A stretch of 64,000 nt of DNA from an uncultured Verrucomicrobiales bacterium (GTDB lineage Bacteria; Verrucomicrobiota; Verrucomicrobiia; Limisphaerales; Palsa-1400): the NCBI GenBank assembly GCA_903927905.1, contig CAIYOY010000145.1, forward strand, positions 3,871 through 67,870, in the 5' to 3' direction. The stretch's first letter is position 1, and the number at the start of each line of letters is the position of its first letter. The notes beneath the pieces are model-generated. The model searched no databases and was not told the DNA's origin. It saw only the letters and a program-made list of their open reading frames with translations. The translations under genes and the position numbers were made by a program. Below, piece after piece: positions 4,028-40,066 of the stretch.

Positions 4028-5374
4028 GCGGCTATCAGCTTTAGATGACAACGCCGCATCCATCTCATCCGCCAGCTTTTGCAGGGTGGGAGAGATCTTC
4101 ACCTTGTAGGAAAGAGCTGGTTCCAATTTCTTCAAAATATCCGGCAGAGCGGCCAACTCCCGTTCGGTCCGCGCCCGCAATGCATCCAGCGGTTCCGGCG
4201 GATTCACCCGTTTCCCCTGTCGCATGACCGGCACCATCAACGCCTTCCCCGGCAGCACGTCGCTCTCCAGTGTCATCACGTCCTCCATCATCTTGCCCGC
4301 CGGATCATAATGCCGATACACCTGCTTGCGCCCCGGCCACGTGGATTTGCCTTCCGAATGTTTGCGGCGCGGAACCCCTTTGTATTCCTGCAACTTGTAA
4401 GCACATTCAAAATACGGGGCGTCGTTCGAAGTATTCATCCGCGTGCCGATGCCATAACCGTCAATCGGCGCTCCCGCCAGTTTCTCCAAAGCGTACTCAT
4501 CCAGGTTTCCGCTCGCCAGGATGCGAACGTCCGGCAACCCGCCGGCATCGAGAATTTTGCGGACCTGCCGCGCGTGTTCCGCCAGATCGCCGCTGTCAAG
4601 CCGCACGGCCTTGACCGTGATCCCCTGCGCCTTCAATTCCGGCGCCAGCTTCACCACTATTCGGGCTCCGTTCGCCGTGTCGTAAGTGTCAATCAAAAAT
4701 ACCGCGTTATCCGGGTTCGACTTGGCAAAATCACGGAACGCTTCAATCTCGCTGTCATGCGATTGCACGAACGAATGGGCCATCGTGCCCGAAACCGGAA
4801 TGCCGAACGCCTTCCCCGCCAGGACCGTCGCGGTCCCCGTGAAACCCGCAATGTAACTGGCGCGCGAAGAAAGCAACGACGCCTCCGCCCCATGCGCGCG
4901 CCTCATGCCGAAATCCACCAGCGATTTTCCCGGGCCCATCAACACACAACGCGCCGCTTTGGAAGCGACCATCGTCTGATACTGCAACAGATTGATGATG
5001 CGGCTCTCCACCAATTGCACCAACGGCAACGGAGCCACCAGACGGATCATCGGCTCATTCGCAAAAAAAACCGTTCCCTCCGGCAAGGCCACCACGTCGC
5101 CGGTAAATTTCAAGGCATTAAGATAATCTAGAAATTTTTGGTCGTAGCCGAAATGTTTCCCCAGCCAATCCAATTCATCGGCGGAAAAATGCAGGTTCTC
5201 CAGGTATTCCAGACACTGCTCCAAACCGGCCGCGACCAGGAAATTCCTCTGCGCCGGAAGACGTCGCACATAAAACTCGAACACCGCCGTCTCCTCCATG
5301 CCGCGGTCAAAGTAGCCCTTGACCATGGTTAATTGGTAAGCATCGGTCAGGAGAACGCTGTTGCCGGGATTCAT
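4025..5374 (-). CDS. pncB: Nicotinate phosphoribosyltransferase
   Basis: LLTDAYQLTMVKGYF, FGMRRAHG, GTMAHSF and RLDSGDL are NAPRTase motifs. I prefer the start at ATG 5374 because the longer 5413 start lies inside an intergenic hairpin. Confidence 0.9.
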   Translation of the reverse strand: MNPGNSVLLTDAYQLTMVKGYFDRGMEETAVFEFYVRRLPAQRNFLVAAGLEQCLEYLENLHFSADELDWLGKHFGYDQKFLDYLNALKFTGDVVALPEGTVFFANEPMIRLVAPLPLVQLVESRIINLLQYQTMVASKAARCVLMGPGKSLVDFGMRRAHGAEASLLSSRASYIAGFTGTATVLAGKAFGIPVSGTMAHSFVQSHDSEIEAFRDFAKSNPDNAVFLIDTYDTANGARIVVKLAPELKAQGITVKAVRLDSGDLAEHARQVRKILDAGGLPDVRILASGNLDEYALEKLAGAPIDGYGIGTRMNTSNDAPYFECAYKLQEYKGVPRRKHSEGKSTWPGRKQVYRHYDPAGKMMEDVMTLESDVLPGKALMVPVMRQGKRVNPPEPLDALRARTERELAALPDILKKLEPALSYKVKISPTLQKLADEMDAALSSKADSR

Positions 5375-5391
5375 GCGAAATGCGTTTTGAA

Positions 5392-5459
5392 GGTGGGGCG
5401 AGCGTACTCGCAAGCCGTTCGTGACATTACCCCCGGCTCGTCAGTAGCCTCGCCCCACC
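5392..5459 (-). other. Intercistronic stem-loop between pncA and pncB
   Basis: GGTGGGGCGAG (5392-5402) is perfectly complementary to CTCGCCCCACC (5449-5459). An inner pairing AGCCG/CGGCT is also present. It sits in the 109-nt pncA-pncB spacer. Confidence 0.6.
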
Positions 5460-5483
5460 GAACAAAAAAAGAGAGGGGCACCT

Positions 5484-6071
5484 TCATGCGGTGATGTCGG
5501 CCAGGGTCACATGAGCTGCGCCCATGCGCGCCATCTCTTCTTCGTGCTCTTTGCTGTCTTCGGGGTTGACGTTGACGCCCTTGATGGCATCGAGCAACAG
5601 GCAGACTTGAAATTTCAGGGCCAAACCGTCCTTCACGGTGTTGAAAACACAATAGTCGGTGGCCAAACCGCCGACAAAAATCCGTTTGATTCCGGCAGCG
5701 AACAATTGATCGGCAAAATCGGTGCGGGCGAACGCGCTGTACGTTTCCAGATTTTCATCGCTGGGCTTGGAAATAATGACCGCGTTGACCGGTAATTCCA
5801 GCAATGGGGAAAATTGCACGCCTTCGGTCCCAACGACACAATGGATCGGCCAGGGCCCGCCCTGGGGAATGAACGAGCAATGATTATCCGGATGCCAATC
5901 GCGGGTGGAATAGACCAAAAGATTGCGCTTATCAAACTCGGCGATGTATTTGTTCAGCACCGGAATGACCTCATCGCCATGCGGCACCGCGAGCGCACCA
6001 TTAGGCGGCAGGAAGTCGTTCTGGATATCAACGATAACCAGGGCATCGGTTGGGCCTAACTCATATTTCAT
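5484..6071 (-). CDS. pncA: Nicotinamidase/pyrazinamidase (isochorismatase family)
   Basis: ALVIVDIQNDF, the metal-ligand region TRDWHPDNHCSF and the catalytic Cys in GLATDYCV. It lies directly upstream of pncB on the same strand. Confidence 0.9.
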   Translation of the reverse strand: MKYELGPTDALVIVDIQNDFLPPNGALAVPHGDEVIPVLNKYIAEFDKRNLLVYSTRDWHPDNHCSFIPQGGPWPIHCVVGTEGVQFSPLLELPVNAVIISKPSDENLETYSAFARTDFADQLFAAGIKRIFVGGLATDYCVFNTVKDGLALKFQVCLLLDAIKGVNVNPEDSKEHEEEMARMGAAHVTLADITA

Positions 6072-11537: not shown

Positions 11538-13754
11538 GTGAGTGTGTGGCAATCTCTCGACAACTCACTGTTTCATTTCATTAACGCGTCGCTCAGCAAC
11601 CCGCTGTTCGACCGGGCCATGCCGTTCTTCAGCGACACGCCCTTTTTTCCGCTAATCCTTGTCGCGGTCTTGGTTGCGCTGATTGTCAAAGGCGGTGCCA
11701 GAGGACGCATCTGTGCCGTAACTCTCGCGCTCGGACTGGCCCTTGGTGACGGCGTCATGTGCGACACCATCAAACATGCCGTCGGCAGATTGCGACCGTT
11801 CCATGCAATTTTGGATGCTCATGTTTTGGTGGGGCGCGGTGAAAGCTTCAGTATGCCATCGTCGCACGCGGCTAACTGGTTTTGCGCCACCCTGATCACT
11901 TTCATCTATTACCGGCGGAGCATTCGCTTCATGTTGCCCTTGGCCTTGCTGGTCAGCTTTTCCCGAATCTACAACGGCGTCCATTATCCCAGCGATGTCC
12001 TCGCCGGCATGATTCTCGGTGCCGGTTGCGGCGCATTCCTCATCTGGGCCATAAACAGTCTCTGGCAAATCACCGGTCCCCGCTGGTTCCCGATCTGGCA
12101 CCAACGCATGCCTTCTCTTGCCTCCCCTGCCCCACTCTCCACTCCGCACTCTTCACTTTCCACTTCTTCCCACTGGCTCAACCTCGGCTACCTCCTCATC
12201 GCCGCCATCTTCCTCTTCCGCCTCCTCTACCTCGCTGCCGGAAAAATCGAACTCAGCGAAGACGAAGCCTATCAATGGATTTGGTCCAAGCACCCGGCCC
12301 TTTCTTATTTCAGCAAACCGCCGCTCATCGCTTACACCCAATTCCTCGGCACCCATCTTTGGGGCGATAACGAATTCGGCATCCGCTTCTTCTCGCCGGT
12401 GATCGCCGCAATTTTATCTTTCATCATGTTGCGCTTCCTCGCTAAAGAAGCCGGTGGACGCGTGGCCTTCATGTTGTTCATCATCGCCAACGTCACTCCG
12501 CTGCTCGCCCTCGGCACCACCGTCATGACGGTGGACCCGCTCTCGGTGTTATTCTGGAACGCCGCGATGGTCGCCGGTTGGCGGGCCACGCAAACCGACG
12601 CCACCACCCGAAACTGGCTCTGGGTCGGACTTTGGATGGGTCTCGGCTTCCTCAGTAAATACACCAACTTGATGCAATTAATATCCTGGGCGGTTTTCTT
12701 TTGCCTCTGGCCGCCCGCGCGGAAACAACTGGCCAAACCCGGCCCTTATCTGGCCATTTTGATCGTGCTCCTGTCCACCGTGCCGGTCTTGATCTGGAAC
12801 AATGAACACCACTGGATCACTGTCAAACACGTCGCCAGCAATGGTCAATTGGACATGAAATGGCAGCCCTCCCTGAAGTACATGAAGGAATTTATCATGG
12901 TGGAAGGCGGCTTGCTCCACCCGTTTTTCTTTGTGGCTATGATTTGGGCAGCCATCGCCTTCTGGAAAACCGAACGAAAAAATCCCCTGCTCCTTTACCT
13001 TTTCAGCATGGGCGCTCCCGTATTTATTTTTTATTTTCTGTTCACCCTTCACTCCCGGATTCAAGCCAACTGGATCGTCCTGGCCGTCATTCCGCTCTTT
13101 TCCCTCATGGCCGTCTATTGGGATCAACGCTGGCAAAACGGTTGCTGCAAAGTTAAAACCTTCTTCAACATCGCTGTCGCCATCGGACTCTTCGCCGTCA
13201 TCCTCACCTACGACACCAACCTCATCGGCAAACTTCTCCATCATAACCTGCCGCCGAAATTCGACCTGCAACACCGGGTCAAAGGTTGGAAAGAAATCGC
13301 CACCATGGCGAACGACGCGCGCAAAGCGGTCGAAGCGAAAGAACAAAAACCCGCGTTCATCCTGTGCGAACATTACGGTTTTACCGCCCAGATCAGCTTC
13401 TACATCCCCGAGTCAAGAAAACACATCGTGGATGATCCGTTCGTCTATTTCCAAGCCGCGTCCGAACCCCGCAACCAGTTTTATTTCTGGCCTGGCTACG
13501 AAAACCGCCTCGGCCAAAACGCCATCTTCGTCCGCGAAATCGAACGCCCCCCGCTGCGCGACGGCTGGTTTAAAGATTGGCTCAAAGGTGGCAACGACTA
13601 TTACGCTCGGGAAAATCTTATCACCCAGCCATTACCCCCTGAAGTCCGAAGTCATTTCGACACCATCACCGACCTTGGCGTAAAAAACGTCATCCCCTCC
13701 GGCAAAGGCATCGTCCGCCGCATCCAATTGTTTGAATGTCGGAACTTGCACTAG
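11538..13754 (+). CDS. Fusion protein: N-terminal PAP2 lipid phosphatase plus C-terminal ArnT/PMT-like glycosyltransferase (GT39/GT83-type membrane GT)
   Basis: The start is GTG. PAP2 motifs are KHAVGRLRPF, SMPSSHA and SRIYNGVHYPSDV. A Ser/Pro linker (SLASPAPLSTPHSSLSTSS) follows. The GT-C part has ELSEDEAYQWIWSKHPALSYFSKPPL and many TM helices. Confidence 0.8.
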   Translation: MSVWQSLDNSLFHFINASLSNPLFDRAMPFFSDTPFFPLILVAVLVALIVKGGARGRICAVTLALGLALGDGVMCDTIKHAVGRLRPFHAILDAHVLVGRGESFSMPSSHAANWFCATLITFIYYRRSIRFMLPLALLVSFSRIYNGVHYPSDVLAGMILGAGCGAFLIWAINSLWQITGPRWFPIWHQRMPSLASPAPLSTPHSSLSTSSHWLNLGYLLIAAIFLFRLLYLAAGKIELSEDEAYQWIWSKHPALSYFSKPPLIAYTQFLGTHLWGDNEFGIRFFSPVIAAILSFIMLRFLAKEAGGRVAFMLFIIANVTPLLALGTTVMTVDPLSVLFWNAAMVAGWRATQTDATTRNWLWVGLWMGLGFLSKYTNLMQLISWAVFFCLWPPARKQLAKPGPYLAILIVLLSTVPVLIWNNEHHWITVKHVASNGQLDMKWQPSLKYMKEFIMVEGGLLHPFFFVAMIWAAIAFWKTERKNPLLLYLFSMGAPVFIFYFLFTLHSRIQANWIVLAVIPLFSLMAVYWDQRWQNGCCKVKTFFNIAVAIGLFAVILTYDTNLIGKLLHHNLPPKFDLQHRVKGWKEIATMANDARKAVEAKEQKPAFILCEHYGFTAQISFYIPESRKHIVDDPFVYFQAASEPRNQFYFWPGYENRLGQNAIFVREIERPPLRDGWFKDWLKGGNDYYARENLITQPLPPEVRSHFDTITDLGVKNVIPSGKGIVRRIQLFECRNLH

Positions 13755-13755
13755 C

Positions 13756-14601
13756 ATGACCTCCGCCATTTTTCCCGTTCGAGACTACGACCTCGCCGCC
13801 ACTCTTTCCTGCGGCCAGGCCTTCCGCTGGGAACAACAGGACGGCTGGTGGGTCGGGGTCATCGGTTCGCATTGGGTTCGTCTGCGCCAAGAAAAAAATC
13901 AGCTCATCGCTGAAACTGCCCAATCCGTTTCCGATTGGACATGGTTGAAAGAATATCTGCAACTCGATATTTGTTTGAAAGATATTCTCGCCACCTTTCC
14001 AAAAGATGAGCCGATGCAAGCCGCTGTTCGCGTTTGTCATGGATTGCGACTGCTCAAGCAGGAACCGTGGGAATGTCTCGCCTCCTTCATCTGTTCTTCC
14101 AATAAACAAATCGTCCAGATCAAACAAATCATCGCCCAACTCTGCGAACGATTTGGTGATCCGCTGCCCGTTCCGCCCGGCCAAAAGCCCGCCTTCTCCT
14201 TCCCCGGATACGAACGGATCGCCATTGCCTCCGAAGCCGAGTTGCGCGAGTGCAAAATGGGGTTTCGCGCCCCGTACATGCTTCAGACCGCGCAAATGAT
14301 TGCGCGCGGCGAGGTCAGTCTCGCTCGGAAGACGACTCTCGCTGAAATGCGCGAAGAACTCCTGAAATTCCACGGTGTCGGCGTCAAAGTCGCGAATTGC
14401 GCATTGCTCTTTGGCTATGGTTTCGAGCAGGCTTTCCCGGTGGATGTCTGGATCATGAAAGCGCTGCAACAACTTTATTTCCCCAAGCGCCGAGTCAAAT
14501 TAAAACGACTGCACCATTTCAGTGAAACCCATTTCGGCCCTTATTCCGGCTATGCTCAGCAATACCTTTTTCATTACATCCGCACCAAACATGAAACTTG
14601 A
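13756..14601 (+). CDS. ogg: 8-oxoguanine DNA glycosylase / HhH-GPD family DNA glycosylase
   Basis: The N-terminal LSCGQAFRW and the HhH-GPD region LLKFHGVGVKVANCALLFGYGFEQAFPVDVW are present. The ATG lies 2 nt after the stop of the preceding gene. Confidence 0.8.
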   Translation: MTSAIFPVRDYDLAATLSCGQAFRWEQQDGWWVGVIGSHWVRLRQEKNQLIAETAQSVSDWTWLKEYLQLDICLKDILATFPKDEPMQAAVRVCHGLRLLKQEPWECLASFICSSNKQIVQIKQIIAQLCERFGDPLPVPPGQKPAFSFPGYERIAIASEAELRECKMGFRAPYMLQTAQMIARGEVSLARKTTLAEMREELLKFHGVGVKVANCALLFGYGFEQAFPVDVWIMKALQQLYFPKRRVKLKRLHHFSETHFGPYSGYAQQYLFHYIRTKHET

Positions 14602-32639: not shown

Positions 32640-34226
32640 ATGAAAAAATTTGATTTTCTCGTCCTCGGCAGCGGTATCGCGGGGCTTTCCTTTGCCTTGA
32701 AGGCTGCGCGGCTGGGCAAGGTCGCCATTGTCACAAAAAAAACCAGCGCGGAATCCAACACCAATTATGCGCAGGGCGGCATCGCCTCGGTTACCAGCAA
32801 AGAGGACTCCTTCGAGATGCACGTGCGCGATACGCTGGAGGCGGGCGCGGGGCTTTGCCATGAAGCCGTGGTGCGGACGATTGTGGAAGAAGGTCCGGCG
32901 CGGATCGCGGAGTTGATCGAGTTCGGCATGAGATTCACCGAGCGCGAACACAACGGGGCCAAGGAACTCGACCTCGGACGCGAAGGCGGACATTCCAAGC
33001 GCCGCATTCTCCACGCCAAGGATGTGACGGGTCGCGAAATCGAACGCGCCCTGCTTGCCGCCGTGGCCGCGCAGCCGAACATCCAGATCTTCGAAAATCA
33101 TTTCACCATTGATCTGATCACCACGAAAAAGTTGGGGCTGAAAAAAGCCAATCGCTGCATCGGCGCCTATGTCTTGGACAAGAAGGCCAACCGGGTGGAG
33201 ACCTTCGCCGCGCGGACTGTTCTGCTCGCCACGGGTGGTTGCGGCAAAGTTTATCTTTACACCACCAACCCCGACATCGCGACCGGCGACGGCGTAGCCA
33301 TGGCCTATCGCGCAGGCGCGGCGATTGCGAACATGGAATTCATCCAGTTCCACCCGACGTGCCTGTATCATCCGAAAGCAAAATCCTTTCTGATCAGCGA
33401 AGCCGTCCGCGGCGAAGGCGGCATTCTCAAGGACGTGAATGGCGTCGCCTTCATGGACAAATATCATCCGCTGAAATCGCTAGCCCCGCGCGATATCGTG
33501 GCCCGTGCGATTGACAACGAAATGAAACGGAGCGGTGCCGATCACGTCTTGCTCGACATCACCCATAAGCCCGCCAATTTCATCATCGAACATTTTCCGA
33601 ACATCTACCAAACCTGCCTCCAACTCGGCATTGACATGACGCGCGAACCGGTGCCGGTCGTGCCCGCCGCGCATTATCAGTGTGGCGGTGTGCAAACTGA
33701 TGTGAACGGCAAGACGGGGATCGCGGGTTTGTACGCGGTCGGTGAAGTCGCCTGCACCGGCCTGCACGGGGCTAATCGGCTCGCCAGCAATTCGCTTCTG
33801 GAAGCGTTGGTCTGCGCGAATCGCGCGGCGGAATTGGTGGAAAAAAAGCCCGATCCACAAACCAAAATTTCCATCCCCCCGTGGCGTTCCGGTCACGCGC
33901 TCAATCCCGACGAACTGGTCGTCCTCTCGCATAACTGGGATGAGATCCGGCGCATGATGTGGGATTACGTCGGCATCGTGCGCACCAACAAACGCCTGAA
34001 ACGCGCCCGCGCGCGCATCGCGAATTTGCAGGAAGAGATCCAGGAATATTATTGGGATTTTATTGTCAGCAGCGATTTGTTGGAATTGCGGAACATCGCG
34101 ACGGTGGCAGAGTTGATCATCAACAGTGCCATTCAACGACCGGAGAGCCGTGGGTTGCATTACAATCTGGATTATCCCAAGACGAATCGGAAGTGGGGGA
34201 AGAAAGATACAGTCTTGCGGAAATAG
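32640..34226 (+). CDS. nadB: L-aspartate oxidase
   Basis: [36 protein letters not shown] and [15 protein letters not shown]. Confidence 0.95.
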
Positions 34227-34517
34227 GGGGCATTTTGGTGTAGAACACATCGCAGTGAGCCGGGTTTGGTGTAACAATTGCCCTGACGTGCTGGGATAGG
34301 CTCGCCCTCGGTAAGCGACCTCAGTTTTGAGATCTCATCCTCGCTAAACTCCGCCCATTTCACGAAAATTCCGCCGCGAGTTGCCATGTCCGTCTCAGTT
34401 GAGAGCTTGGGCAAGATTCATCCGACTGCGTGGCTGACGACGACCGCGATCTTGGTGCTGCCTGGATGGAAGCAAATTCTTTCTATTTTTTGTTGTCTCC
34501 GGTAGGCTGAGGCTCCT

Positions 34518-35297
34518 TTGAAATTCGAATGTCACAACTCTATAGATGGACGGTCGCTCATTGGCCGGTGGTTTTTAAGTCTTCGTTGGGTGTCCTCCAT
34601 TTTTCTCCTGACGGGGTTGTTTGCCACGAGCTCATCATCGGCAGCGACCTGGCAGGAGGAATTTGCCCGGATGCCGCTGGGGGAAGTGACGGAATTGGGG
34701 CAAAGCAATTGCATCAAAACCATGCTGGGGGCGTTTCAGAGGAATGCAGCGGTCAAGGCCATCATTTTCATGCCGGGTTGCACGGATGAATTTAATTTTT
34801 TCCATCGGGCTCATGCGAAGTTGACGAACCCCTCCCCCACCATGCTGGATGCGGTCGTGGCCCTGACCAACCAAACGCTGATCCGCGCCACGGTGCGGCC
34901 GCCGTTTTTGTTGCTGCACACGGCGGAGGATCCGTTGGAACCGCTCGGCATCATCCAAGATGAGGCGACGGCGAACCGCATCCGCAAGAAGAAGTTTGAC
35001 AAGGAGGTGCGTTACTTCGACAAAGATTGGGATTTTTTGCTCCCCATCCTGCGATTTGACTTGGACACCAAGATGCTCCCGGCCGGCCATGTTCATGCCA
35101 GCAACCATTTTTTCCGGCACAGTTTTGCGGCTTATGATTTGACCGCCTATGAGGCGCTGGAGGCGATTTCCATGGCGGGCAAGACGACCTTTACCATCCA
35201 AAAGAGAAAGGTGTTGTTTGAAGGAGACAAGCGGTTTCTGGGCAAGCCGCCGACGCCGCCTAATTTCCTGCTGCCCGATGGCAAGGTGCCGCAATAG
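34518..35297 (+). CDS. Hypothetical secreted protein (first gene of the YHYH / MbnPH-like cluster)
   Basis: The start is TTG per the ORF track. It has a signal-like segment (WFLSLRWVSSIFLLTGLFATSSSSAA). I recognised no family. It ends 48 nt upstream of the next gene on the same strand. Confidence 0.45.
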   Translation: MKFECHNSIDGRSLIGRWFLSLRWVSSIFLLTGLFATSSSSAATWQEEFARMPLGEVTELGQSNCIKTMLGAFQRNAAVKAIIFMPGCTDEFNFFHRAHAKLTNPSPTMLDAVVALTNQTLIRATVRPPFLLLHTAEDPLEPLGIIQDEATANRIRKKKFDKEVRYFDKDWDFLLPILRFDLDTKMLPAGHVHASNHFFRHSFAAYDLTAYEALEAISMAGKTTFTIQKRKVLFEGDKRFLGKPPTPPNFLLPDGKVPQ

Positions 35298-35345
35298 TTT
35301 GCGGCCTTCATCTTGTCTTAAGGTTGGCTGGGATAATTTTACGCC

Positions 35346-37094
35346 ATGAAAACGCAAATTAGAAAATATTTGGGCCTTGTTTTGATGGCATGTGCCATCC
35401 AATTGGCTGGAGATCTTCAAGCCGATCCGTTAATCACATCGTGGTTCACGACGTACTCGGGCAAATACGCGCGGCTTTATACCACCACGGCGAACCAGAC
35501 GGCCGGCACCTCGGTGTCCACTTGGAGCCAGGGCGCGGGTGTGCAAACGAGCCCGGCTTATTGCGGTGTGCAGGAAGTGGATTCTTCGACGAGCTGGGTT
35601 TATATCCGCTCTTCCGGTCTCGGCTCGCACATCATGGGGCCGTGGTATTTGGATGCGCAAAAAACGCAGCTCTTTCCCAATTATCCGGCAAATACCAAAA
35701 CGTTGTATCGCTTTCCGCGGACGCCGGTGATCGCGACGAATACGCTGACGTCCCTTGGCGTGGTGGGTTATTTTGTGGATGGCGCGGCGATGTATGACGG
35801 ACGCGATTCGTATTTTTGGAACGGGACGACGGAAACGAACCAGGGGACGGGCTATTGGGATCGCGATGCTTATACGAATGAGTTTCCGAGTTTCGACCCA
35901 AATTATGCGCATCAAGACCAGTCGGCCACGTATCATTATCATGTTGATCCGCTGGCACTGAGGTATCTCATGGGGGACAACATTTTGTTTAATTCTGCGG
36001 CCAAGACTTACAAGGAAAACACGACCAACGCGACGCCCAAACATTCGCCGATTTTGGGCTGGGCAAAGGACGGATATCCGATGTACGGGCCTTATGGCTA
36101 TTCCTCGGCCATGAATTCCAACAGCACGGTGCGCCGGATGATCTCCGGCTATCAACTACGCAACGGCCAAAACGGGACGGACAATCTGACTTCTTCCCGG
36201 GCCACTATTCCGGCCTGGGCGGCGCGAGCCTATAATGTTTCCACCAATCAAACCGGGCCGGCGGTCAGCACGACTTATTTTTTGGGGCGTTACATGCAGG
36301 ATTACGCCTATCTCGGTGACGTGGGCAAAACGCAGGGGGTGGATTTCGACCTGAACGAATTCAATGTCCGTTTTTGCGTGACGCCGGATTATCCCAACGG
36401 CACATGGGCTTATTTCGAGTGCATCACCTCCAACGGCCTGCCGCAGTTTCCTTATCAAGTGCCACGCCGGTTTTTCGGCAATCCGACCGGGACGAATTTG
36501 ACCGGCATCACGGAAACGGTCACGACCAATTTTATCGGCGGGGCGAATTCAGTGATTGAAGCAACCCAGCCGAAGATCACCAACAACACGGTGACGTTGT
36601 CGTGGAGTTCGGTGGATGGTGGGACGTATCAAGTAGTTTCTTCCACGAACACGACGAGTTGGAACAGCAAGGCAACCAATCTTGCTTCGCAGGGAACGAC
36701 GACGGCTTTCAGCGCGGCGGCTAATACCAATTTCGAGTTTTTCACGGTGACGCGGACGGCGGTTTCAAATTATGACTCGGTGGTCAGTTCCGGCTACGGC
36801 ATCACCAGTGTTTCGCCCACTTCAGCGAACCGGAATACGACGTTTACGTTGACGATCAATATCAGTTCATCGGTGAACGCGCCGCCGCAGTCTGCACCGA
36901 TCAGCAGCGTGACCCTGGGCTCGATCACCGCCACCAGTTCCACGCATGTCAGCGCGACGCAGGTGACGGCGAGTTTTACCATTCCCTCGAATGCCACCAC
37001 GGGATGGCAAACGGTGACGGTCACGTTTCCGGGGCCACCGACCAATATGGCGGCGACGGTGAGTTACACGTATAATAATTTCACGATTAATTGA
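35346..37094 (+). CDS. Secreted YHYH-motif domain protein with C-terminal Ig/fibronectin-like beta-sandwich domains
   Basis: It has a signal peptide (MKTQIRKYLGLVLMACAIQLAG). Motifs are AHQDQSATYHYHVDP, ILGWAKDGYPMYGPYGY and NEFNVRFCVTPDYPNGTWAYF. The C-terminal TVTLSWSSVDGGTYQVVSS... module is followed by a Thr/Ser-rich Ig-like domain. Confidence 0.75.
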   Translation: MKTQIRKYLGLVLMACAIQLAGDLQADPLITSWFTTYSGKYARLYTTTANQTAGTSVSTWSQGAGVQTSPAYCGVQEVDSSTSWVYIRSSGLGSHIMGPWYLDAQKTQLFPNYPANTKTLYRFPRTPVIATNTLTSLGVVGYFVDGAAMYDGRDSYFWNGTTETNQGTGYWDRDAYTNEFPSFDPNYAHQDQSATYHYHVDPLALRYLMGDNILFNSAAKTYKENTTNATPKHSPILGWAKDGYPMYGPYGYSSAMNSNSTVRRMISGYQLRNGQNGTDNLTSSRATIPAWAARAYNVSTNQTGPAVSTTYFLGRYMQDYAYLGDVGKTQGVDFDLNEFNVRFCVTPDYPNGTWAYFECITSNGLPQFPYQVPRRFFGNPTGTNLTGITETVTTNFIGGANSVIEATQPKITNNTVTLSWSSVDGGTYQVVSSTNTTSWNSKATNLASQGTTTAFSAAANTNFEFFTVTRTAVSNYDSVVSSGYGITSVSPTSANRNTTFTLTINISSSVNAPPQSAPISSVTLGSITATSSTHVSATQVTASFTIPSNATTGWQTVTVTFPGPPTNMAATVSYTYNNFTIN

Positions 37095-37260
37095 CGTTGA
37101 AAAATTCAAAGTTCAAAGTTCAAATCCCAAGGAAACTTCAAACTCCAAACTCCAAAATGGCGCTCGGAAGGATCGGGCGCTTTGGGGGTGGATTTTGGAA
37201 TTTCTTTGGAATTTGGATGTTGGGATTTGGAGTTTCCCTTTCAGCATTTGGAGTTTCTCT
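37095..37260. repeat. TTCAAAG/CTCCAAA simple-repeat element with imperfect inverted symmetry
   Basis: aaattcaaagttcaaagttcaaatcccaagg...cttcaaactccaaactccaaaat faces attttggaatttctttggaatttgg...gggatttggagttt...atttggagttt. A related gttcaaagttcaaagtttaaaattcaaagtt lies at 55024-55053. Confidence 0.75.
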
Positions 37261-38941
37261 CCAAGTCAACATTTCTGCCACCCACACCGCCACTCCGCTA
37301 ACCTTCGAGTCGCTTTCATTGACCAACGGAACGGGACAAAAATTTTCCGTCACGCGTTTGGATTTTTTGCTCTCGGATTTCGCCCTGCAACGGAGCGATG
37401 GCGTGTGGCTGGAACAGACCAACTGGCAGGCGTTTCTAAGCCTGGCGGACAAGCGGTCGAGTTTTTCGGTCGCGGGGATTCCGCCCGAGTCCTATCAGCG
37501 CATCCGATTTCACGTGGGTCTGCGTCCAGAATTGAATCATTCGGACATCACCAAATATCCGCCGGATCATGCGCTCAATCCGAACCTGAACGGACTGCAT
37601 TGGGGCTGGGCGGGCGGTTATATTTTCTTTGCGGCGGAGGGTCGCTGGCGCGGGACGGATGGCAAGCTGGGTGGATTTTCTTATCATCTGGCCAATGACG
37701 AGATGTTGATGACGGTGGAATTGCCGACGGCGCTGGCATTGGAGAATGATCAATCAATGGAACTTGCGCTCGATTTGACCAAATTTTTCACCCACCGATT
37801 CGCGCAGGATGATTCTTCGACTCATTCGCGCAAAGGAGATGCGCTGGCGGCGATCTTGCGAGGCGAAATCGAGAAAGGATTTTCGGTGAAGGAAGTGACG
37901 GACACGCTGAAGCGTGAACACCAACAACTGGCCAAGGGCGTCCTCGTTTCCCCTAACGCGCATCCGTATCGCTTTTCGTTTTCCGCCACGTTTCCGATGC
38001 CGGAGTTGCCCAGGGACAATCCATTGACGGAAGAGGGCGTTGAACTGGGCCATAAATTGTTTGGCGAGAAAATGCTTTCGATCAATGGGCGGCAATCGTG
38101 CGCGTCTTGTCATCGGGCGGAATCGGCGTTTTCCGATCCGGGCAAACAATTCGCCACCGGTGCCGAAGGGAAAATTGGCACGCGCAATGGGATGCCGATT
38201 TTTAACATGGCGTGGAAGCGGTCGTTTTTCTGGGATGGACGCGCCGCCACGGTGCGGGAGCAGGCCTTGCAACCGATCCAAAATCCGATTGAGATGCACG
38301 AGAATCTGGATCGGGTCGTCAGCAAACTTTCCAAAGACGCAAATTATCGCGAAATGTTTGCGCGGGCATTTGGTTCGACTGAAGTTTCCGCTGATCGCGT
38401 TGCCCGGGCGTTGGAACAATTTGTCCTGACGCGGATCTCCTGTAATTCGAAATTTGACCGCGCCTTGCAAGGCCAGGAAAAACTGACCGAGCAGGAAAAG
38501 CGCGGCTTTGAATTGTTCGTCACGGAATATGATCCGCGACGCGAACAATACGGCGCGGATTGTTTTCATTGCCACGGCGGGCCGTTGTTCCAGAGCCAGA
38601 GTTTTGCCAATAACGGTTTGGATGCGACGTTTTCGGATGTGGGTCGTTCAGCGGTCACCGGAAAGGATTATGATCAGGGAAAATTTTCCGTGCCTTCGTT
38701 GCGCAACGTGGCTTTGACTGGCCCTTACATGCACGACGGACGTTTCAAAACTTTGGAAGAAGTGGTGGAACACTACTCCACCGGCATGAAACGCAGCGCG
38801 ACGCTCGATCCCAACCTCGCCAAGCATCCCGATGGCGGGGTGCCGTTGAGCGCAGCCGATAAAAAAGCGCTGGTCGCGTTCCTGAAAACTTTGACGGACA
38901 GCCAATATCAGTCCACTCTGGCTGCCAACAAACCCGAATAA
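37157..38941 (+). CDS. Fusion of an MbnP-like domain (N-terminal ~250 aa) and a di-haem cytochrome c peroxidase of the MauG/MbnH type (C-terminal ~330 aa)
   Basis: The N-half has VTRLDFLLSDFAL, FHVGLRPELNHSD and LNGLHWGWAGGYIFFAAEG (MbnP-family pattern). The C-half has two haem sites (SCASCHRAE and DCFHCHGG) plus WDGRA, LQPIQNPIEMH and SVPSLRNVALTGPYMHDGRF. The start is uncertain: the ORF is open from 37091, with ATGs at 37157 and 37217. Confidence 0.75.
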   Translation: MALGRIGRFGGGFWNFFGIWMLGFGVSLSAFGVSLQVNISATHTATPLTFESLSLTNGTGQKFSVTRLDFLLSDFALQRSDGVWLEQTNWQAFLSLADKRSSFSVAGIPPESYQRIRFHVGLRPELNHSDITKYPPDHALNPNLNGLHWGWAGGYIFFAAEGRWRGTDGKLGGFSYHLANDEMLMTVELPTALALENDQSMELALDLTKFFTHRFAQDDSSTHSRKGDALAAILRGEIEKGFSVKEVTDTLKREHQQLAKGVLVSPNAHPYRFSFSATFPMPELPRDNPLTEEGVELGHKLFGEKMLSINGRQSCASCHRAESAFSDPGKQFATGAEGKIGTRNGMPIFNMAWKRSFFWDGRAATVREQALQPIQNPIEMHENLDRVVSKLSKDANYREMFARAFGSTEVSADRVARALEQFVLTRISCNSKFDRALQGQEKLTEQEKRGFELFVTEYDPRREQYGADCFHCHGGPLFQSQSFANNGLDATFSDVGRSAVTGKDYDQGKFSVPSLRNVALTGPYMHDGRFKTLEEVVEHYSTGMKRSATLDPNLAKHPDGGVPLSAADKKALVAFLKTLTDSQYQSTLAANKPE

Positions 38942-38950
38942 AAATTTAAA

Positions 38951-40066
38951 ATGCAAAAACCCATCGTCGCCCTCGGGGCCATCGTTCTCGTCCTCTCTGT
39001 TTCCGCTCAACCCCCCGGTGGCGGCCCGCCGGGCGGCGGTTTTGGCCGGCAGAATTTTGGCCAGCGTTATACCGGGCCATTGACCAATTACGTTTCCATG
39101 ACCACGAACGGCGCGTATCGGGTCATCCAGGCCAACGGCATTCCCGATCATCCGCCGGGCCAATTTCCCAATGCGCATAATCCGAATTCCATTTCGCCGC
39201 AACGTTACTACTACAAGGTGCCGCTGCATCCACGCATCGCCGTGCAGGAAACCAAATTGCGGATGCAGCCGTTTGGCATTGCGGTAAACGGCGTGGTTTT
39301 TGATCCGGGCGCGGCCGAATGGTGGAATCGCGACCAGAGTTCCGGCTGGCAATATGAGCCGTTCAACATGCCGGGGAAACTGGGGTTGGACGAATACAAC
39401 GCGCACGTTCAGCCGAACGGCGCGTATCATTATCATGCGATCCCGGCGGGTTTGATGACCAAGCTTGGCGGCCAGTCGAAGATGGTGATTTTGGGCTGGG
39501 CGGCGGACGGGTTTCCGATGTACGGGCCGATGTGTTCTGCGGACGCGAAGAATCCACAGAGCCGGTTGAAGAAAATGACTTCTAGTTACCGGGTCAAGAA
39601 GGGAGCCAGGAACGGCGCGCCGGGCGGAAATTATGACGGCACGTTTTTGGCCGATTTCGAATATATCAAAGGAGCCGGTGATCTGGACGAATGCAACGGC
39701 CGCTTTGGCCCGACACCGGATTTTCCTGCGGGCACTTATTATTATGTACTGACGGAAGATTATCCATTTGTTCCACGCATTTTCAAAGGGATGCCGGATG
39801 CCAGTTTTGAGCGACGCGGCCCGCCGGGCGGATTTGGCGGGCGCGGCCCGGGCCAGGGTCAAGGTCGGCAGCAAGGTCCTCCCGGTGAAGGACGGAACGG
39901 TCCGCCGCAGGGCCAACAGGGCGGTTTTGATCAAGGCCGCGATGGCGGGCCACAAGGACGGGGAAACACCGGCAGAAACGGCCCACCGCCATCACAAGGA
40001 CAACAAGGTTTCGATCGAAACCAACAAGGCGGAAATCCGCCGGGGCCGCCACAGGATAATCAGTAA
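38951..40066 (+). CDS. Secreted YHYH-motif domain protein with Gly/Pro/Gln-rich low-complexity termini
   Basis: It has a signal peptide (MQKPIVALGAIVLVLSVSA). Motifs are AHVQPNGAYHYHAIP, ILGWAADGFPMYGP and DECNGRFGPTPDFPAGTYYY. The C-terminal ~85 aa are GPPGG/GQQG-type low complexity. Confidence 0.75.
   Translation: MQKPIVALGAIVLVLSVSAQPPGGGPPGGGFGRQNFGQRYTGPLTNYVSMTTNGAYRVIQANGIPDHPPGQFPNAHNPNSISPQRYYYKVPLHPRIAVQETKLRMQPFGIAVNGVVFDPGAAEWWNRDQSSGWQYEPFNMPGKLGLDEYNAHVQPNGAYHYHAIPAGLMTKLGGQSKMVILGWAADGFPMYGPMCSADAKNPQSRLKKMTSSYRVKKGARNGAPGGNYDGTFLADFEYIKGAGDLDECNGRFGPTPDFPAGTYYYVLTEDYPFVPRIFKGMPDASFERRGPPGGFGGRGPGQGQGRQQGPPGEGRNGPPQGQQGGFDQGRDGGPQGRGNTGRNGPPPSQGQQGFDRNQQGGNPPGPPQDNQ

Follow-up and report, generated by a model that had tools for sequence, protein, structure and literature searches.

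Which of the four neighbouring genes at positions 34518-40066 of a verrucomicrobial genome fragment belong together, and what could they do at the cell envelope? The fragment, here called the window, is a stretch of 64,000 nucleotides (nt) from an uncultured Verrucomicrobiales bacterium (assembly GCA_903927905.1, contig CAIYOY010000145.1, positions 3,871 to 67,870). A preliminary description of this DNA had proposed that four + strand open reading frames (ORFs) form one envelope system for metal or redox chemistry: a secreted protein (ORF1), two YHYH proteins (ORF2 and ORF4) and, between the latter, a protein which combines an MbnP-like half with a di-haem MbnH-like half (ORF3). Our analysis leads to a smaller unit. 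The conserved unit consists of two genes, which encode the long ORF2-type YHYH protein (YHYH-long) and the MbnP::MbnH fusion, and we consider it highly probable that the two are functionally coupled.

The four ORFs, their spacing and their signal-like N-termini were found as described. ORF1 (34518-35297) encodes a secreted-type protein of 259 amino acids (aa) from an unannotated family, ORF2 (35346-37094) the long YHYH protein of 582 aa (PF14240, E = 1.9e-34), ORF3 (37091-38941) the fusion (PF20243, E = 7.3e-28; PF03150, E = 2.5e-54) and ORF4 (38951-40066) a short YHYH protein of 371 aa (PF14240, E = 6.9e-68). ORF2 and ORF3 are core partners 1 and 2, and ORF4 is a paralogue outside the conserved core. 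ORF1 and ORF2 are separated by 48 nt, ORF3 and ORF4 by 9 nt. ORF2 and ORF3 overlap by 4 nt if ORF3 begins with the TTG at 37091 (616 aa) and are 62 nt apart if it begins with the ATG at 37157 (594 aa). The ATG is more likely to be the translation start, since a length of 594 aa fits the homologues, which typically have 585-600 and in many cases 593 residues. All four N-termini contain a basic followed by a hydrophobic stretch and resemble Sec signals, as judged by eye and with no predictor; they comprise residues 1-26 of ORF2 (35346-35423), positions 37157-37255 of ORF3 and residues 1-19 of ORF4. ORF2 and ORF3 are apparently co-transcribed.

The evidence for the pair comes from related loci. 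Metagenome contigs were scanned with an alignment of the MbnP-like domain built from 18 fusion homologues, and 80 loci were obtained in which this domain is 38-58% identical to that of the window. Every ORF in these loci was translated and searched with the four window proteins; 72 of the loci are non-duplicate. Among the 48 non-duplicate loci with at least 2 kb of sequence upstream of the fusion, 44 contain a same-strand ORF2-type YHYH gene which ends at the fusion start. The encoded proteins comprise about 585 aa and have the same C-terminal domains as ORF2. Where 0.3-2 kb were available upstream, the 3' part of such a gene was present in 13 of 15 loci. The same picture emerges in the reverse direction, where the fusion lies directly downstream of an ORF2-type gene in five out of five loci (L006, L088, L090, L091 and L092). 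L090, L091 and L092 were picked independently of the fusion list, L088 via a contig shared with a short YHYH gene, and L006 was met during the look-up of fusion homologues. In addition, about 20 contigs are common to two independent lists of the top 120 matches, one for the fusion and one for the ORF2-type protein, including the adjacent genes JWR19_2009 and JWR19_2010. The preliminary description had suggested looking for such pairs also in Planctomycetota and Bacteroidota. So far they are confined to the Verrucomicrobiota, to which all organism-named matches belong, e.g. Pedosphaera and Prosthecobacter.

Since every named source is verrucomicrobial, the loci do not count as phylogenetically independent, and some fusions have no YHYH gene nearby. 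Both observations would suit the view that the adjacency is an inherited gene order of this lineage without any coupling. ORF2 would then be a secreted protein with no relation to ORF3, and the latter a peroxidase or copper protein of the periplasm. We regard this as very unlikely. The fusion proteins across these loci show a median identity of 57% and a minimum of 41%, the YHYH-long proteins likewise, and the pairwise identities of the two correlate with each other (r = 0.70). As both proteins have diverged to about 41-57% identity while the outer flanks vary, the adjacency is not a matter of mere recent common descent. Outside the pair, a two-component system and an EF-hand protein (see below), no gene family was found in more than about 17 of 83 loci. 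The pair also survives rearrangements: in L014 and L045, which form one small clade, the long YHYH gene and the fusion are both kept in an altered gene order, and in L006 (4246-7964) and L090 (5158-8770) the long YHYH gene is tandemly duplicated ahead of the fusion. Moreover, the genes follow one another after very short gaps or with an overlap.

The proposed four-gene system does not hold. Homologues of ORF1 were found in 0 of the 80 fusion loci. A short ORF4-type YHYH gene follows the fusion in just one of the 43 loci with at least 1.5 kb of downstream sequence; the cases with a short YHYH gene at this position are L026, L088, the nearest relative contig, where the four-gene order of the window recurs, and, with a partial gene, L012. 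The expected synteny between YHYH and MbnP/MbnH-like genes is therefore a property of the long type, and what remains is a two-gene core with variable accessories. ORF1 belongs to a real family, since 182 representative clusters match it (E <= 1e-3), with no match among the Pfam and NCBIfam models and nothing meaningful in the PDB. Elsewhere its homologues are preceded by a Fe-S_biosyn (IscA-like) gene and one that encodes about 206 aa (L087 6943-8744; L100 1602-6446). ORF1 was considered as a component of the module and rejected, given its absence from the 80 loci and these different conserved neighbours of its own; it is probably just a neighbouring gene. In L100 the ORF1 homologue adjoins an EF-hand gene of the module type together with a response regulator and kinase, with no YHYH gene or fusion. 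This points to an ancient neighbourhood more than to a common function.

ORF4 is an occasional, optional accessory paralogue. Short YHYH genes elsewhere (two in Verrucomicrobiota, others in Thalassospiraceae, Thalassotalea and Phycisphaerales) have no MbnP or MbnH gene within 10 kb. Eleven plasmid-borne YHYH loci are known from our searches, and in the six of them that were examined no MbnP/MbnH neighbour was present. A scan of genome contigs with ORF4 peptide patterns, which are very specific, gave 4 loci, none of them with MbnP or MbnH.

What kind of protein is the fusion? The assignment of its two halves in the preliminary description is borne out by the domain searches: both YHYH proteins, the MbnP-like half and the CCP_MauG half are recognised by their Pfam models. 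The di-haem domain (residues 307-607, 38009-38911) matches PF03150 with 184.4 bits and contains the two CxxCH haem motifs CASCH (residue 337, 38099-38113) and CFHCH (residue 491, 38561-38575). In an alignment of 121 fusions, both motifs, the inter-haem tryptophan W381 (38231) and the tyrosine Y562 (38774) are invariant. The nearest solved structure by sequence is 6E1C (E = 4e-48; PDB title 'Di-heme enzyme'), which we take to be MbnH of Methylosinus trichosporium. Y562 aligns with a tyrosine in 6E1C, and in the canonical peroxidases 1IQC ('vetM') and 3O5C ('vntM') with the residue at which the alignment ends, presumably the axial Met ligand of those structures. In canonical peroxidases the electron-transfer haem has Met/His ligation, and MauG, MbnH and BthA are known to form bis-Fe(IV) species (PMC11892367). 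Since an invariant Tyr replaces the canonical Met ligand, and the haem motifs and the inter-haem Trp are invariant as well, the C-terminal half of ORF3 is, by its sequence, a MauG/MbnH-type domain and not a detoxifying peroxidase. A canonical cytochrome c peroxidase was considered and rejected (NF040606 CytoC_perox, 14 bits against a cutoff of 150; Tyr in place of Met). Hydrazine-synthase-like and SoxA-like identities were rejected on score. In one related locus (L092, 10606-11901) a gene for a DHOR-family (PF06537) di-haem oxidoreductase, a second di-haem protein, stands after the fusion.

The MbnP-like domain (residues 58-239, 37262-37807, the boundaries of the Pfam match) reaches 98.2 bits with PF20243 (cutoff 27) and is encoded in one reading frame with the MbnH-type part. 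Its WxW motif, W171-G-W173 (37601-37609), is invariant in both tryptophans among the 121 aligned fusions. Four histidines are nearly invariant, each being conserved in at least 98% of the sequences: H150, H160 and H199 lie within the domain and H245 (37823) just beyond its end. The two-domain architecture is shared by all of the best 120 of 5112 ORF3 homologues (E <= 1e-10). Some homologues are labelled 'MbnP family protein' at NCBI.

The closest known system is the MbnP/MbnH pair, which is encoded in methanobactin operons and other copper-related loci (TIGR04052, TIGR04039; structures 7L6G and 6E1C). MbnP binds Cu(I) via His, Met, water and a kynurenine, and this binding depends on the formation of the kynurenine from the leading Trp of WxW, for which MbnH is required (PMC11951088). 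The window shares with this pair a di-haem MauG-type enzyme encoded together with a Trp-rich WxW partner and the Tyr at the canonical Met position; the N-terminal half of ORF3 matches the Pfam MbnP model, and the C-terminal half is nearest to 6E1C. In contrast to the known pair, both proteins are fused into one chain, and the fusion has a near-obligatory long YHYH partner, which is not mentioned for MbnP/MbnH in the literature searched. The locus differs from the methanobactin loci in that it contains no methanobactin gene, TonB-dependent transporter or MbnI/MbnR regulator. Both halves fall below the curated equivalog cutoffs, and ORF3 is therefore not a strict member of either family; the MbnP-like half, in addition, finds no sequence match in the PDB. 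As far as sequence can show, the locus nevertheless works like an MbnP/MbnH pair. MbnP/MbnH pairs are widespread outside methanobactin operons.

Two further systems resemble the locus. In methanotrophs the copper proteins MopE and CorA, which are secreted or surface-bound and contain a kynurenine-plus-His copper site, are encoded beside di-haem cytochrome c peroxidase homologues, MCA2590 and CorB (PMC3621798, PMC11951088). Unlike ORF3, MopE and CorA have another copper-protein fold, are encoded separately from their enzyme, occur in methanotroph hosts, are copper-repressed and lack a YHYH partner. MauG, which acts on pre-methylamine dehydrogenase, likewise combines a haem with Tyr ligation and a Trp between the haems, and it oxidises Trp residues of its partner (PMC11951088). 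ORF3 differs from it in a score far below the cutoff (TIGR03791, E = 9e-52, 176 bits against 444), in the lack of mau genes and in the fusion of the presumed substrate domain to the enzyme.

The partner of the fusion belongs to a family of which little has been described. YHYH domains are widely found among bacteria, phages, giant viruses and diatoms, and ORF2 (119.8 bits) and ORF4 (228.8 bits, cutoff 25) are clear members of PF14240. The paralogy claimed for them was confirmed by BLASTP (27% identity across an alignment of about 270 residues, E = 3e-17) and by comparison of the two family profiles (hhalign probability 99.9, E = 1e-35). They have in common the motifs AH..YHYH (ORF2 Y196-H197-Y198-H199; ORF4 Y159-H160-Y161-H162), ILGWA.DG(Y/F)PMYGP, (N/D)E(F/C)N(V/G)RF..TPD(Y/F)P.GT and PQFP/PFVP. 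These motifs had been quoted correctly except for one spacing, as from AH to the residue before YHYH there are five residues and not two. The YHYH domain comprises approximately residues 77-381 of ORF2 (35574-36488) and residues 36-290 of ORF4 (39056-39820). The ORF2 subfamily is set apart from other YHYH proteins by an inserted segment and, at the C-terminus, by two beta-sandwich domains of the immunoglobulin (Ig) or fibronectin type III (FN3) kind (about residues 390-582, 36513-37091; AlphaFold2 model, Foldseek); it is also tied to the MbnP::MbnH fusion, and the others are not. ORF4 instead ends in a tail rich in Gly, Pro and Gln (39821-40063).

Residue conservation was followed in one 64-sequence alignment per subfamily and in a profile-profile alignment. 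In 64 ORF2 orthologues with 54-83% identity H189, H197, H199, H233, D242 and C344 are invariant. Four His and one Asp are common to both subfamilies, namely H95 (35628), H189 (35910), H197 (35934), H199 (35940) and D242 (36069) of ORF2, which correspond to H67, H152, H160, H162 and D186 of ORF4; they define a candidate metal-ligand span at 35628-36071. H233 (36042) is invariant in the ORF2 subfamily only, and the conserved Cys falls in different alignment columns in the two subfamilies. The conserved His, Tyr, Asp and Cys residues of the YHYH proteins, as already proposed in the preliminary description, may form a metal or redox centre.

Structure prediction places this domain apart from known folds. 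The AlphaFold2 model of full-length ORF2 has a predicted local distance difference test score (pLDDT) of 78, and its Foldseek matches derive from the Ig-like C-terminal domains only. As these domains swamped the search, the YHYH domain of ORF4 was modelled separately (pLDDT 88.6, predicted template modelling (TM) score 0.88). No structural neighbour was found for it in the PDB (Foldseek best E 3.1, TM <= 0.13), and no PDB sequence matches the YHYH proteins, so that there is no solved YHYH structure. In a library of viral structures the model matches solely YHYH proteins of cyanophages and giant viruses, with TM scores up to 0.78 (cyanophage). Iyer et al. called the domain 'enigmatic' and predicted a Zn-dependent hydrolase whose site would comprise three His and one Asp, noting fusions to phage tail proteins (PMC7824862). 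Beyond this hydrolase prediction no function of YHYH proteins is described in the literature searched, in agreement with the earlier statement that the family is functionally uncharacterised. The top-ranked literature search results, which did not cover the main studies of MbnP/MbnH neighbourhoods, contain no paper that treats YHYH together with MbnP, MbnH, MauG or cytochrome c peroxidase. The association of YHYH-long with the fusion was thus not found in the literature searched and is new relative to it.

What could the two proteins do together? MauG-type enzymes are usually encoded beside the protein which they modify (PMC11892367; PMC3621798). The very tight adjacency of ORF2 and ORF3, as well as the many invariant Trp and Tyr residues and the invariant Cys of YHYH-long, would agree with YHYH-long itself being the substrate of the MauG-type domain, which would install a protein-derived cofactor (an oxidised or cross-linked Trp, Tyr or His) as MauG does on methylamine dehydrogenase. 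We think this quite improbable, as the presumed substrate, the WxW motif, is already present in the fusion's own chain, and YHYH domains with the same conserved residues are widespread without a nearby MauG-like gene. The core function of the domain is therefore independent of such a modification.

The main rival explanation, which we place above the others, starts from the YHYH domain. Dozens of its residues are invariant over about 250 aa, the two Ig/FN3-like domains are typical of secreted polymer-active enzymes, phage structural proteins, among them tail proteins, also contain YHYH domains, and the domain was predicted to be a metal-dependent hydrolase (Iyer et al., PMC7824862). YHYH-long could accordingly be a metal-dependent enzyme (a hydrolase, lyase or oxidase) whose target is a polymer outside the cell or in the envelope, and the fusion could serve it as redox partner. 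The latter would supply or remove electrons or peroxide, as the partners of lytic polysaccharide monooxygenases do, and the module would be a degradative or remodelling system rather than one for metal trafficking. A permanent tether between the di-haem and MbnP-like parts also fits continuing catalysis better than a single maturation event. We nevertheless judge this explanation unlikely, if far from negligible. There are no conserved genes for glycoside hydrolases, polysaccharide utilisation or peptidoglycan around the pair; what is often encoded there is a two-component system and an EF-hand protein, short YHYH genes stand beside genes for HupE/UreJ-type transporters, which fits metal handling, and in the structure search of the PDB the YHYH model has no likeness to a known hydrolase or oxidase.

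The neighbours just mentioned deserve a closer look, although neither the two-component system nor the EF-hand gene is encoded in the window. Genes for an OmpR-type response regulator and a HAMP/HisKA kinase were found within 7 kb upstream in 22 of the 33 loci with sufficient sequence, and their best NCBIfam matches are heavy-metal sensor and regulator families (TIGR01386/TIGR01387). A secreted EF-hand protein rich in Gly and Pro is encoded within 3 kb downstream in 28 of 49 loci. Such proteins (e.g. L006 9911-10558) have low-complexity Gly/Pro-rich ends and one or two canonical EF-hand pairs. The fullest version of the neighbourhood is L088, which contains kinase and regulator, YHYH-long, the fusion, YHYH-short, a single-domain receiver and an EF-hand protein. 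In 14-17 loci further genes were seen, for which L025 may serve as an example: a HemN/HemW-like radical S-adenosylmethionine gene upstream of the module (4597-5760), a single-domain response-regulator gene just past the fusion (11831-12298) and, on the opposite strand downstream, a gene for a major facilitator superfamily transporter (12924-14354).

The EF-hand proteins bring up another ion. The frequency of their genes, the weak matches of the EF-hands to lanmodulin and XopAW and the existence of YHYH::EF-hand fusions would be in line with a module for calcium or lanthanide instead of copper, in which EF-hand and YHYH proteins act as periplasmic ion binders. We give this hardly any credence: the EF-hand loops look canonical, the lanmodulin match amounts to 39.7 bits and is far under the cutoff of 135, a His-rich site like that of YHYH favours transition metals, and the window itself contains no EF-hand gene. 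In composition the ORF4 tail is similar to the low-complexity segments of the EF-hand proteins, and there are ORF4-type proteins that carry EF-hands in the same chain. In a Phycisphaerales locus (L089), where MbnP and MbnH genes are absent, an EF-hand protein precedes a YHYH::EF-hand fusion.

Short YHYH genes were also found next to transporter-like genes. On plasmid NZ_CP092194 of Deinococcus sp. KNUC1210 (L094 5821-7897) a short YHYH gene is followed after 4 nt by one for a HupE/UreJ_2 protein, and in Thalassotalea sp. PLHSN55 (L004 5640-10594) by one for a free-standing protein of 183 aa, which is 37% identical to the N-terminal domain of the Deinococcus HupE/UreJ_2 protein (E = 5e-32). The mature N-terminus of this domain apparently begins with a His, and an EF-hand-like loop lies inside. 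Just upstream, the Thalassotalea locus encodes an EF-hand protein together with a kinase and a response regulator. HupE/UreJ proteins are metal transporters of the Ni/Co type. The position of YHYH genes beside HupE/UreJ-type genes therefore supports a periplasmic metal-handling role for YHYH proteins in general.

In the window the surroundings of the cluster are of a different kind, with the housekeeping genes panC and nadB upstream and recQ downstream. Between nadB and ORF1 there is a candidate - strand ORF of 80 aa (34172-34414). A weak stem-loop (35288-35305) with a 7-bp GC-rich stem includes part of the ORF1 stop region, overlapping the stop codon itself, has a weak T-rich tail behind it and may separate ORF1 from ORF2 transcriptionally; in a promoter and terminator scan of the region motif counts were not above those of shuffled sequence. 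The 62 nt between the ORF2 stop and the ATG of ORF3 (37095-37156) are AT-rich and contain short direct repeats, TTCAAAG three times and then AACTCCAA twice. No obvious Shine-Dalgarno-like sequence was seen in this interval.

Taken together, we see an even chance that the locus represents a two-gene envelope module of the Verrucomicrobiota, formed by YHYH-long and the MbnP::MbnH fusion, which handles a metal, probably copper, and has a redox function. Both proteins would be exported, as their signal-like N-termini suggest, and two c-type haems would be attached to the C-terminal half of ORF3 at its CxxCH motifs. By analogy with MbnH and MbnP, the di-haem domain with its Tyr at the Met-ligand position would reach a high-valent state with H2O2, and W171, the leading Trp of WxW in the tethered MbnP-like domain, would be oxidised to kynurenine by the same chain. 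The kynurenine and the conserved His could then form a copper site of the kind known from MbnP, MopE and CorA. YHYH-long is predicted to carry a mononuclear metal site of four His and one Asp in a fold of which no structure is solved, besides its two Ig-like domains. Judging from the conserved adjacency only, it may be an obligate partner that gives or takes the metal or uses the redox equivalents. The specific model of copper trafficking by way of kynurenine is more tentative, and we consider it somewhat more liable to fail than to hold.

Several points weigh against this picture of a copper module. The best NCBIfam model for ORF3 is that of MbnH (TIGR04039), and its 239.9 bits stay below the equivalog cutoff of 362.85; the MbnP_like_WxW model (TIGR04052) gives 31.9 bits against a cutoff of 140 and covers residues 120-200 only. 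There is no invariant Met in the MbnP-like domain in the alignment of the fusion homologues. A profile of this domain has zero matches among the PDB sequences and does not recover MbnP (7L6G), so that the His/Met copper ligands of 7L6G cannot be mapped onto ORF3. A permanent fusion is odd for an enzyme which modifies its substrate once. The conservation of the YHYH domain, with its many invariant residues, is enzyme-like, and a hydrolase was predicted for it (PMC7824862). In Pedosphaera parvula (L005) and in L046, L068, L085 and L086 the fusion is found with no YHYH gene in the sequence available. The neighbouring kinase and regulator of the relatives also remain below the cutoffs of the heavy-metal families (274 bits against 292.55 and 212 against 279, respectively), the kinase match spans the HAMP domain and kinase core only, without the sensor domain, and 34 aligned sensor kinases have no conserved metal-binding motif in their periplasmic sensor part. 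The EF-hand neighbours point to Ca2+ rather than Cu. Finally, metal binding, the kynurenine and the contact between the ORF2 and ORF3 proteins are all inferred.

The oddity of the permanent tether can be read in yet another way. YHYH-long and the fusion could constitute an undescribed extracytoplasmic metalloenzyme, in which the di-haem domain is tethered for continuing catalysis and not for a one-off maturation: oxidising equivalents derived from peroxide would be relayed via the kynurenine/copper site to the metal centre of the YHYH protein with its new fold, and this protein would act on an external substrate. We regard this possibility as improbable. If true, it would provide a first function for a domain that bacteria share with phages, giant viruses and diatoms.

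The near-obligatory pairing described here gives each of two poorly understood families, MbnP/MbnH outside the methanobactin operons and YHYH, a testable partner. The fusion raises the question whether enzymes of the MauG type may go on acting as catalysts beside the site which they build. For the Verrucomicrobiota of soil and freshwater the pairing suggests that metal sites of the kynurenine type may be common.

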